A stretch of 18,717 nucleotides of DNA, taken from a virus. Taxonomy: Duplodnaviria > Heunggongvirae > Uroviricota > Caudoviricetes. A program made the position numbers. The DNA is taken from positions 1 through 18,717 of IMG/VR virus record IMGVR_UViG_2703718806_000010; one strand, given 5' to 3'. Positions 15,001-18,000 of this stretch are shown here, one piece after another (position 1 is the stretch's first letter; the number at the start of each line of letters is the position of its first letter).

Positions 15001-18000
15001 TAATTATATCCATATGAGTTGCACTTTAATGTCATTCCATTTTGTAACACAATTGTTTTTCCGTAGTCACAACCTTCAAAATCGCCATCAACTTTTGAGA
15101 CTATACTGACTGTATAACCAATAAGCTCTTGATATTCATAATAAGTATTGTATGCGTTTGAACTTAATGGTAATAGAAATAAAGAAATCATTAATATTAA
15201 TTTTTTCATATAACATCCTTTTAGTTTCTTTATAAAAGATAAGCTATATCCACGTAACTCAATTATGTCAACATCAGTATCAAATAATGTTGACACACCA
15301 CACATTCTGTCGGATACTCTGCTTCAGGTGCTCAAAACACCTTAGCAAGTAGCGGTTACCGCGCCCGACAGACATGCGGTTTTTTTGTGTCCAGTCTTCT
15401 TGGTTTATGACCGGGCGTGCGGCTAATACAACACCAGCAATGGGAATATGCCCGCCGACTACTTGCGGTTTTGAGCGCCCGGTCACCCTCTCAAAAGGGG
15501 TAAATCAAAATATCAAGTAGGACACAAAGCATGAAAACCATCTCCGTGGAGTCCCTCTCCATAATTTCATTTAGTAATATACCTGTGGTGACTACAGAGC
15601 TTCTTGCCAGCTTATATGGCACAGAACCAGATTACATCCGAAAAAACTTCAATCGGAATTCTGGACGATTTGTTATCGGTAAGCACTACTTTTTACTTGA
15701 GAATGAGGAGTTGCGCGAATTTAAGCACAGCATGTCTTTAAGACCTTCTGTGAAAATCGCCCGTAACGTTCTCTCCCTCATCCTCTGGACAGAACGCGGC
15801 GCAGCCCGTCACGCAAAAATGCTCGAAACCGATCAGGCTTGACGTTATAGGTCGTTACTTGTAGATTTATCTTTGTGAGGCGTCAGAACCTCTCTAAAGC
15901 GGACAAAACCAACCCCGTCAGTGTTGGATTTTTTATGCCTGTTATTCAGTGATAGCACAATGTGCTGTCACATCCCCGAACAATGTCGGGAGGGCGACGA
16001 ATACAACACCCGTAAGGGGAATAAGTCCGCGGTTCTTTAGGCCGTTCTGAACCTCCCGACACCACTATCAGAGGTGGTAATTTCAGAAAAAGCTAAAGGA
16101 GGTCGTTATGACCATGCAACTCGCTGTAGAATCCCTCGTCGTCGTTACTTACTCTAACGTCCCTGTAATAACAACAGGGTTATTGGCAAATCTATACAAA
16201 ACTGAAGAAAAACATATACGGCAGAACTTCAAACGTAATGAATGTCGTTTCATTGCAGGAAAACACTTCTTTAAAGTAAGTGGCTGTGAACTTGATAGTT
16301 TGCGAACCTCTCAAAGAGGTTTACAAATTTCCCCAAAAACCCGCTCCCTCATCCTCTGGACAGAACGCGGCGCTGCCCGTCATGCAAAAATGCTCGAAAC
16401 CGATCAGGCGTGGGAAGTGTTCGAAAAACTGGAAGACTGCTATTTCAGCCAGGGAAAAACAACACAAACCGAACAGCAGCCGCAGATTCAGCCGCAATTC
16501 ACAGCCGAGGAAATCATCCTCCTTTGCTACATGCAGTTCTGGATGGAAAAAGCCCAGGACCTCAGCAAACACCTGTATCCCATCATGAAAGAGCTGAACT
16601 CATCATACACGAACAAGCTGTATGACATTGCGTTTGAGACTATCTACATGGTGACGAAGAACAAGGAAGCACTACTGCGGGAGGCGGCACAGCTTGACCA
16701 GTCAAGTTTCGTTGTCCAGCGGGCCAGACCAATGCTGAAAAGCCTGCGGGCAAGACAATTTGAATTCTGAAACCAAAGGAGCTTCGGCTCCTTTTTTGTT
16801 GGGAAAATCCAGTGAGAGGGAATAATGAACCAGACTATCTTCCTCCGAAGTAAGCAGCAGCAACAATTCGCCATTAACGCAATCCTTGCAACAACTCTCG
16901 ATAAAGACAAACCCGTTACGATCCGCATCACCGATTACAAGCGGAATCTCGATCAAAATGCCAAATTTCACGCGATGGTCGCTGATATCTCCCGACAGGT
17001 TCAGTGGTGCGGCAGATGGCTAAAACCAGAACAGTGGAAAGTTTTGTTAATCAGTGGTCATGCCGTGGCGACAAAACAGGAAGCTGATGTTTTGCCAGGT
17101 CTTGAAGGTGAATACGTCAATATCCGCGAAAGCAGTGCGCAGATGAGCGTGAAGCGTATGGCAAGCCTGATTGAGTACACAACTTCCTGGGCTGTGGAGC
17201 AGGGTGTCAGATTTACCGACAGGAGGTATGAATGAGACGACAGCGACGAAGCATTACCGATATAGTCTGTGAAAACTGCAATTACCTTCCAACGAAACGC
17301 TCCCGAAATAAACCCAGGCCAATCCCCAACGAATCTGATGTAAAAACCTTCAATTATACGTCTCACCTGTGGGATGTCCGGTGGCTCAGACGTCGTGCAA
17401 GATTTAATAGTCACTCCGGATAGTTCAATGTACGAGGAATAAGATGATGGCAAACCTACGCAAAGAAGCGCGTGGCAGAGAATGTCAGGTACGGATTTAC
17501 GGCGTATGCAATGGCAATCCTGAAACTACAGTTTTGGCGCATTACCGAATGGCTGGAATTTGCGGAAGGGGAATGAAGCCAGATGACCTGTTGGCTGCAT
17601 GGGCCTGTAGTGACTGCCATAATGAAATCGATCGCCGTACTCGCATTCTCGACAACAACGACGCCAGACTTTACCGCCTGGAAGGCGTGATCAGGACGCA
17701 GGCGATACTGCTGAAGGAGGGGAAAATTAAGTCATGAATGAATATGAGTTTGTGCTTCCCTGGCCGCCGACGGTGAATACCTACTGGCGAAGACGGGGAA
17801 GCCAGTACTACATCAGCGATAAAGGCCAGAAATACCGAAAAGACGTACAGCAAATCATCCGGCAACTCAGATTAGACATTTTCACTAAATCACGACTTCG
17901 CATCACAATTATTGCTGAACCACCAGATTCCCGTCGTCGCGACCTCGATAACATCCTGAAAGGTTTACTCGACTCTCTTATCTACGCCGGATTTGCGGAA

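Follow-up and report, generated by a model that had tools for sequence, protein, structure and literature searches.

What controls the two ORF6N antirepressor-like genes that stand in tandem in this virus DNA, and why does each of them carry a leader that is complementary to the region ahead of its start codon? The window, which is the whole stretch of 18,717 nucleotides (nt) from IMG/VR record IMGVR_UViG_2703718806_000010, is a lambdoid prophage as seen from its Pfam matches. A preliminary description had noted that both genes are preceded by a promoter, a leader ending in a hairpin plus T-tract and a 5' untranslated region (UTR) that pairs with the leader, and had proposed that a leader-derived small RNA or attenuator controls the genes in analogy to P1 c4 and P22 sar. 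On the evidence presented here we consider each cassette likely to be a module for antisense-RNA control, of the P1 c4 or Gifsy-1 IsrK type and built on an RNA of the sRNA-Xcc1 class. The principle of such control is known; the sRNA-Xcc1 class has not previously been recognised as working in this way. That a control module of known kind is present here on a distinct RNA core, not previously connected to that kind, we regard as real and well supported.

The promoter scan returned both described promoters on the plus strand, and the complementary blocks in leader and downstream region are exact in both cassettes (features are listed in Table 1). In cassette 1, the leader segments GCTCAAAAC (15330-38, here called a1) and GCAAGTAG (15345-52, b1) pair with 15459-15476, while in cassette 2 TCAGAAC (15883-89) and CTAAAG(CGGAC) (15894-15904) pair with 16025-16050. 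The downstream partner, however, is not the plain UTR that had been assumed. Full-length matches to the Rfam family sRNA-Xcc1 (RF02221), covering model positions 1-87 of 87, are located at 15409-15492 (79.3 bits, E 2e-13) and 15985-16068 (75.7 bits), both above the family's gathering score of 53 bits. The RNA shape given by Rfam is a three-way junction, and the segments that pair with the leader are its P3 loop (b') and the junction between P3 and P1 (a'); this RNA is the equivalent of c4 and the likely repressor. The folding z-score is -2.1 for each cassette's RNA, and the minimum free energy fold of the cassette 2 RNA reproduces the Rfam structure. The two-part layout of leader and UTR was also incomplete, as a second copy of the blocks (a2 and b2) on each ribosome-binding site (RBS) had been missed. 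Each cassette therefore reads, in order, promoter, a1 in a hairpin loop, b1, weak terminator, structured RNA, a2, b2 merged with the Shine-Dalgarno (SD) sequence, and gene. This is the arrangement of the functional class, with a1/b1 upstream, a'/b' in loop and junction, and a2/b2 downstream with b2 over the RBS. By their predicted domains both downstream genes encode antirepressor-type proteins, as genes behind c4 modules do.

Whether such pairing could arise by chance was judged on the leaders themselves and on the family. Dinucleotide shuffling of the cassette 1 leader reproduced its two ordered blocks (7 nt or longer) in 44 of 5000 trials. Searching viral contigs with the invariant core of the RNA yielded 119 loci, with 82 distinct RNAs having full flanks. 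A P1 helix of 6-12 base pairs (bp) is present in 121 of 122 instances. Among the 82 distinct RNAs, complementarity to both flanks concentrates on exactly two RNA segments, in which 71 (b') and 35 (a') distinct 8-mers occur. In position-restricted flanks, exact cognate matches of at least 7 nt are found for b1 in 70%, b2 in 63%, a1 in 49% and a2 in 55% of the loci, as compared to 2-4% for non-cognate flanks (Mann-Whitney p<1e-30). Covariation across related prophages, proposed earlier as a check, is thus borne out, and the explanation of the pairing as chance or relic is rejected because the pairing covaries family-wide. In 39 of 63 related loci the distance from the end of b2 to the start codon is 9-11 nt, and the 3' end of b2 merges with the SD. 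The proteins encoded behind 59 modules carry P22_AR_C (15), Bro-N (13), ORF6N (11), KilA-N (9), AntA (8), P22_AR_N (5), pRha (5) and ORF6C (3) domains, and are antirepressor-like regulators with shuffled domains.

P22 sar is a small RNA that limits translation of the antirepressor. It is made from the opposite strand across the ant RBS, whereas all window elements lie on one strand; no minus-strand promoter-like site was returned by the promoter scan in 14800-17000 and the sar family has no Rfam match in the cassette region, so the sar analogy falls away. A related proposal, that the ~60-nt leader RNA itself represses or attenuates by pairing with the downstream 5' UTR in the manner of c4 or sar, appears very improbable to us. 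The complementarity on which it was built is real, and the short leader-derived RNA remains plausible, its homologue IsrK having been detected in Gifsy-1 (PMC4825925). It is the repressor role that does not hold. What had been taken for UTR forms the loop and the junction of a structured RNA that is conserved, the opposite-strand promoter that a sar-type RNA needs was not found, and the leader blocks have the same sense as the RBS blocks; the leader therefore cannot pair with and mask the RBS and can only compete for the structured RNA. Moreover, the homologous IsrK activates: supplied in trans, it raised anrP translation 139-fold and transcription 8-fold (PMC4825925).

The other analogy, to P1 c4, holds in principle, though with the roles of leader and downstream RNA exchanged, and control of antirepressor-like genes by RNA-RNA pairing had also been rightly proposed. 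Order and spacing match. The P1 record annotates promoters, a1 (48255-61), b1 (48269-76), c4 RNA (48343-419), a2 (48423-29), b2 (48452-59) and icd (48470). The immI region and the window cassettes accordingly share the order of promoter, a1, b1, structured RNA with a'/b', a2, b2 on the RBS and antirepressor operon or gene, at nearly equal spacing. In P1, a2 begins 3 nt after the c4 RNA, and in the cassettes also a2 is directly downstream of the RNA; b2 is 10 nt from the start codon both at P1 icd and in cassette 1; and a1 lies within a hairpin loop in P1 and in the window, the a1 hairpin of cassette 1 being the counterpart of that in the Rfam c4-a1b1 of P1. The leaders have a near-identical layout, aACCGC...GCGGTatttttGTGTCC in P1 and ttACCGC...GCGGTttttttGTGTCC in the window, both with ACCGC...GCGGU, a T-run and GTGTCC, and the RNA 5' start UAUG(G/A) and 3' end CACC are common to P1 c4 and the window RNAs. 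Several differences are also seen. The first RNA arm is an elaborate, near-invariant internal-loop hairpin in the window and a simple GC hairpin in c4, control in the window falls directly on the ORF6N gene, which has no icd-like gene ahead of it, and a C1-type operator is not known for the window cassettes. Rfam gives on P1 a C4 match of 68.8 bits, a c4-a1b1 match of 51 bits and a sub-threshold isrK match of 35 bits over the leader; the Xcc1 model has no match on P1 or Gifsy-1.

Experimental evidence comes from Gifsy-1 of Salmonella. Like the window it is a lambdoid prophage, the gene behind its module is antirepressor-like, with an N-terminus similar to that of the window proteins, and a short leader RNA ends at a leaky terminator while the read-through transcript holds a c4-type RNA followed by a2/b2 on the SD. 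In the sequence, the isrK match (79 bits) comes first, a C4 match (69 bits) lies behind it, and a2 ATTGGCGT and b2 ATCACCGGAGG stand next, on the anrP SD. The published 'orf45/STnc1160' between isrK and anrP (L121, 34214-34131, minus strand) is itself this full-length Rfam C4 match of 69 bits. According to Hershko-Shalev et al. 2016, IsrK is a short RNA ending at the leader terminator, with some transcripts reading through (PMC4825925). The Gifsy-1 module differs from those of the window in that its core RNA is of the C4 class and its leader matches isrK, neither of which models matches the window, and in that it lies between Q and the late genes and not before ninB. The original study was not framed in c4 terms and described no titration of a c4-like repressor.

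The account published for isrK, an mRNA switch with a translated upstream open reading frame (ORF), can be carried over to cassette 1. The structured region would then belong to an mRNA that folds in alternative ways and would not be an RNA of its own, and a 37-amino-acid ORF (15407-15520), which begins at a conserved ATG and has its stop inside b2, could be translationally coupled to the ORF6N gene. In its favour, an ATG stands at the 5' foot of P1 in 56 of 82 family members, the cassette 1 ORF ends in b2 only 10 nt before the gene ATG, and start-codon and stop mutations in Gifsy-1 orf45 lowered anrP activation (PMC4825925). However, the ORF length is unconserved (mode 13 codons, range 3-301, with cassette 2 stopping after 10), and the TG of its ATG belongs to the P1 helix. 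In addition, a family member in E. coli O157:H7 EDL933 is nearly without ribosome footprints (PMC5331693) and in Xanthomonas a discrete RNA of 88 nt is seen (PMC2996969). We therefore hold such an mRNA switch with upstream-ORF coupling to be an improbable explanation of the cassettes.

The leaders were compared with 44 related ones. In 36 of these the best sigma-70-like site scores 9-11/12, its -10 mostly ending ~10-15 nt before a1; a hairpin of 4-6 bp surrounds a1 in 38 of 42; and CGG directly follows b1 in most, which in cassette 1, as read from sequence, could let the pairing continue into P3 of the RNA. The leader hairpins at 15358-15386 and 15909-15934 are present as described though weak (5-6 bp stems, 9-11 nt loops), and together with their T-tracts are probably weak, leaky intrinsic terminators. 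Of 44 related leaders, 42 have a T5-8 run with a covarying stem of 4-7 bp (CCGC/GCGG, CCAAC/GTTGG, ATCAC/GTGAT, ACCACA/TGTGGT) upstream of it. These are per-sequence hairpin counts, used because RNAalifold on a MAFFT alignment of 43 leaders, which was not a structural alignment, gave no structure. The hairpin element of cassette 2 is identical in related loci L010, L084, L085 and L117.

Weak terminators placed 5-10 nt after b1 also recall satellite phage P4. As summarised in PMC4825925, P4 CI is a processed structured RNA with an internal segment (seqB) complementary to one upstream and one downstream site (seqA, seqC) in the same transcript, and acts through these to terminate transcription. 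By analogy, the window RNA would pair with a1/b1 on the nascent leader to strengthen the terminator and with a2/b2 to bring about Rho-dependent polarity, forming an autoregulatory loop. Consistent with this, pairing with the RNA is stronger at the leader sites than at the RBS sites (-22.8 vs -18.3 kcal/mol, n=27, p=0.001), and in P1, as Biere et al. reportedly found in 1992, c4 repression of icd translation causes polarity on ant. On the other hand, most family members have b2 placed exactly over the SD, an arrangement that speaks for translation as the main target, and in the IsrK experiment the effect on transcription was far below that on translation. The output of P4 CI is also transcription termination of replication genes with no antirepressor involved, and the likeness to it is drawn from its published description. 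As the account of these cassettes, P4 CI-like control seems rather unlikely; as a serious complement it is compatible with the c4-type reading.

For c4-type control we propose the following mechanism, in which the structured RNA most likely keeps the ORF6N gene from being translated. Transcription would begin at the cassette's own promoter, and many transcripts would end at the weak leader terminator, giving a ~62-nt RNA that shows a1 in a hairpin loop, followed by b1. Read-through transcripts would hold the ~81-nt three-way-junction RNA with its P3 loop (b') and P3/P1 junction (a') single-stranded. This RNA is probably cut free at the base of P1, an acceptor-like helix followed by an RCC(A/C) tail; RNase P processes c4 in this way, according to the summary in PMC5320573. 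The excised RNA would then pair with a2/b2 just downstream and, because b2 runs into the SD, the pairing would mask it and leave the ORF6N antirepressor-like gene untranslated. The leader RNA may act as a decoy: its copy of both sites is somewhat better matched, so it could compete for the structured RNA and turn translation on, as IsrK does experimentally. Feedback of the structured RNA on termination may also take place at the leader. Since the cassettes differ in a' (GUUUUGAGC vs GUUCUGAA) and b' (CUACUUGC vs CUUUAG), they are probably separate specificities.

The RNA itself has a near-invariant core, AAUACAAYACC(C)GNAAGGGGAAU, located at 15426-15448 and 16002-16024 and present in all 108 aligned RNAs, which forms a GNRA-capped hairpin in an asymmetric internal loop. 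This core sets the sRNA-Xcc1 class apart from C4 and is conserved beyond what an antisense role explains. One could hence suppose a ligand- or protein-sensing cis element, in which the core AAUACAAYACCCGNAAGGGGAAU binds a factor and the flank complementarity is secondary. The 20 invariant columns across 108 sequences do exceed any antisense need, but the motif used for collecting the sequences fixes 18 of the invariant bases and the invariance therefore partly follows from sequence choice. No riboswitch family was matched, the variable parts of the RNA covary with both flanks, and the C4 class has the same flanking architecture without the core. A sensing element is, in our opinion, hardly credible as the explanation.

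Independent reports bear on the expression of sRNA-Xcc1. The founding Xanthomonas campestris RNA was seen as a discrete 88-nt species on Northern blots (PMC2996969). It belongs to the same Rfam family as both window RNAs; in contrast to what is proposed here, it was described as trans-acting, controlled by HrpG/HrpX and having many predicted targets. In integron cassettes sRNA-Xcc1 lies upstream of the toxin gene symE, again ahead of a harmful gene, and in some APSE phages it lies upstream of an ORF6N gene. In EDL933, the Rfam-annotated sRNA-Xcc1 received 40,293 RNA-seq reads, with an RPKM (reads per kilobase per million) of 25,609 and a ribosome-coverage value (RCV) of 0.02 (PMC5331693), and is therefore abundant and untranslated. 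A complete Xcc1-type module was located in EDL933 (L125, NZ_CP008957, ~1394578-1394900, minus strand) upstream of a gene annotated as 'phage antirepressor Ant', with b1 CAAATAAG and b2 CAAATAAGGAGG, at the edge of a prophage remnant adjoining rutG and with no non-coding RNA annotated. The module was not found in phage 933W, where it was sought to tie the EDL933 expression to a Shiga toxin (Stx) phage. No link of sRNA-Xcc1 to c4, and no flanking a1b1/a2b2 sites, are reported in the literature that could be searched.

Several points weigh against the assignment of the cassettes to c4-type control. Both are known here from sequence alone. Rfam C4 (RF01695, criterion 45 bits) has no match in 15200-16200 even at E<=10, and neither isrK (RF01394) nor c4-a1b1 (RF03163) matches the window leaders at E<=10; the leaders have the a1 hairpin and the terminator hairpin but miss the first hairpin of c4-a1b1, whereas the P1 and Gifsy-1 leaders match the models. 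Since these models fail, kinship with c4 is drawn from architecture and short motifs (5' UAUG, 3' CACC, leader terminator) and not from C4 membership. The blocks of cassette 2 (at least 6 nt) were equalled in 745 of 5000 dinucleotide leader shuffles, which is within chance, and its pairing alone is therefore unconvincing. Because related loci descend from common ancestors, the matches counted in them cannot be taken as independent. A simple terminator scan did not call either leader hairpin, and single-sequence folding of these hairpins was no better than that of shuffles; we accept the terminators as real because 42 of 44 related leaders keep the T-run with its covarying stem. A crude duplex-energy test, in which GC-rich stem bases dominated the scores, gave no clean orthogonality of cassettes 1 and 2. 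The direction of the leader's effect as a decoy is extrapolated from Gifsy-1, the sole experimental evidence on a leader RNA (activation in trans), and the authors of the IsrK study account for it by alternative folds of the mRNA and translation of an upstream ORF, with no free c4-like repressor (PMC4825925). Finally, it is likely but not proven that the EDL933 module is the copy measured in PMC5331693.

If Xcc1 RNAs are c4-type repressors with cognate flanks, then P1 c4, P4 CI, Salmonella IsrK and the Xanthomonas/Xylella 'virulence sRNA' would be one mechanism, the Gifsy-1 'orf45' region would be reread as a c4 RNA, hundreds of unannotated phage RNA genes would be explained, and nature would offer dozens of RNA regulator/target pairs that are likely orthogonal. 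Antirepressors let a prophage induce itself or its neighbours, Shiga-toxin phages included, so a switch that silences them bears on toxin release and prophage cross-talk. We put forward, tentatively and as a possibility, one joint extension. The sRNA-Xcc1 modules might form a large, fast-evolving 'lock-and-key' switch family, with at least 71 specificities in our sample matched at leader, RNA and RBS, in which the leader RNA would be an anti-antisense activator making a two-RNA bistable switch. Truncated, orphan or tandem units, such as cassette 1, unit 1 of L040 and the five-copy Xylella array, would silence the antirepressors or toxins (SymE) of rivals in trans, and an inverted repeat of promoter spacer and terminator loop, described below, would be an extra layer telling apart transcripts from upstream.

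Tandem arrangements are seen elsewhere. Related locus L040 has, at 6900-7400, two leader+RNA units 243 nt apart, of which the first has a strong terminator behind it and is without a2/b2 or a gene; its b' (CTTATGC) matches b2 of another phage contig (L074), which suggests an orphan RNA aimed at another element. Five tandem copies have been reported in Xylella Temecula1 (PMC12189769).

Table 1. Positions of cassette elements and neighbouring genes in the window (SD, Shine-Dalgarno sequence; aa, amino acids).
Feature	Position	Strand	Details and basis
Integrase	4-1164	minus	Pfam
Exo VIII-like and YqaJ recombination genes			Pfam
S24-peptidase CI-type repressor	8596-9363	minus	Pfam
CII	9819-10112		Pfam
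DnaC-like loader	11452-12189		Pfam
Cassette 1 promoter-like site, TTGACA-N17-GATACT	15290-15318	plus	Promoter scan, 10/12
Cassette 1 a1 hairpin, AGGUG-CUCAAAA-CACCU	15326-15342	plus	a1 = GCTCAAAAC (15330-15338) in loop and 3' strand
Cassette 1 b1, GCAAGTAG (15345-52) with conserved CGG	15345-15355	plus	
Cassette 1 leader hairpin, ACCGCG / CCCGACAGACA / UGCGGU, then T7	15358-15386	plus	
Cassette 1 candidate structured antisense RNA, ~81 nt	15408-15488	plus	P1 helix 15408-17 / 15476-85; 3' tail CCC
Cassette 1 RNA, b' CUACUUGC and a' GUUUUGAGC	15459-66; 15468-76	plus	b' in P3 loop
Cassette 1 a2, CTCAAAA (15490-96)	15486-15499	plus	Loop of hairpin CCC-UCUCAAAA-GGG, read from sequence
Cassette 1 b2, CAAGTAG (15514-20), running into SD AGGA	15514-15522	plus	ATG at 15531, 10 nt after b2 end
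Gene 1, 103 aa, ORF6N domain only	15531-15842	plus	Pfam ORF6N E 1e-19
Cassette 2 promoter-like site, TTGACG-N17-TAGATT	15839-15867	plus	Promoter scan, 9/12
Cassette 2 a1 hairpin, GAGG-CGUCAGAA-CCUC, then b1	15877-15904	plus	a1 TCAGAAC 15883-89; b1 CTAAAG 15894-99 with CGGAC
Cassette 2 leader hairpin, CCAAC / CCCGUCAGU / GUUGG, then A-T6	15909-15934	plus	
Cassette 2 candidate structured antisense RNA, sRNA-Xcc1 class	15984-16064	plus	b' CUUUAG 16035-40; a' GUUCUGAA 16044-51; 3' tail CCA
Cassette 2 a2 and b2, into SD	16082-16103	plus	a2 TTCAGAA 16082-88; b2 CTAAAG 16093-98; SD GGAGGT 16098-16103; ATG 16108
Gene 2, 220 aa, ORF6N and P22 antirepressor C-terminal domain	16108-16770	plus	Pfam ORF6N E 6.5e-20, P22_AR_C E 3e-8
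Strong intrinsic terminator closing cassette 2, before ninB	16775-16802	plus	8-bp stem, T-run; terminator scan
NinB (followed by YbcO and RusA)	16825-17232		Pfam

Both cassettes are placed between the replication block and ninB, and no tRNA or tmRNA was found in the window. Sequence of the cassette region is 95-99% identical to many Stx-converting phages and E. coli prophages, though never as one intact block. Gene 1 is, as its sequence indicates, a truncated antirepressor-like gene. It shares 55% identity with the N-terminus of gene 2 and ends in ...LETDQA, its stop TGA falls within the -35 of cassette 2, and its RefSeq homologue is flagged as incomplete with the C-terminus missing. An 88-nt stretch is common to both genes (15754-15841 vs 16325-16412, 86% identity), and in Shigella phage 75/02 Stx cassette 1 is fused to a full-length gene. 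From the truncation of gene 1, the common stretch, the stop in the -35, the incomplete homologue and the 75/02 Stx arrangement it therefore seems that the tandem arose by recombination inside the ORF6N coding region. The present role of cassette 1 may lie mainly in its RNAs.

Both cassettes also occur in related locus L122 (E. coli 2013C-3181, 1690-4247), flanked on one side by a Rha-family gene and on the other by a 'cell division inhibitor' gene, in the neighbourhood of gam/recT/exo. Their place in that prophage is unlike the one in the window, and the module therefore appears to move as a unit. Between the replication genes and the cassettes of the window, an AT-rich block of small genes with a moron-like look occupies 14243-15209 on the minus strand. 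It holds an HTH_3 protein (14585-14929) and a 105-amino-acid protein (14895-15209) with a hydrophobic N-terminus and without a Pfam match.

Further sequence features are seen around the leaders. No convincing LexA box was found near either promoter on inspection by eye. A perfect 9-nt inverted repeat, TGTCAACAT / ATGTTGACA, at 15266-15295 lies over the -35 of the cassette 1 promoter; it might serve as an operator or mark where the divergent minus-strand gene ends. The motif CCCG(A/T)(C/T)AG is kept in the large loop of the leader terminator hairpin (15365-15372 and 15914-15921) and in ~36 of 42 related leaders. Pairing of this motif, CCCG(A/U)(C/U)AG in the RNA, with the P1 5' strand was considered and rejected, as it gave no cognate advantage (-12.3 vs -11.4 kcal/mol) and no covariation. 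All 8 nt of the motif at 15365-15372 recur exactly, in inverted orientation, in the promoter spacer at 15306-15313, just 5' of the -10 (TCTGTCGG / CCGACAGA). This inverted repeat is present in L036, L054, L093, L042 and L125 (EDL933), with one apparently compensatory change in L042, and an unrelated allele group keeps the spacer/loop relation with other bases (AGCTATCG|CATACT vs loop CCCGATAGCT). The relation is missing from cassette 2 and most loci; it might reflect an operator pair or mark transcripts that enter from upstream. Between the cassette 2 leader terminator and its RNA, an 11-nt near-perfect palindrome, GTGATAGCACA/TGTGCTGTCAC, is located at 15949-15971 and is also present in the leaders of L058, L084 and L085.

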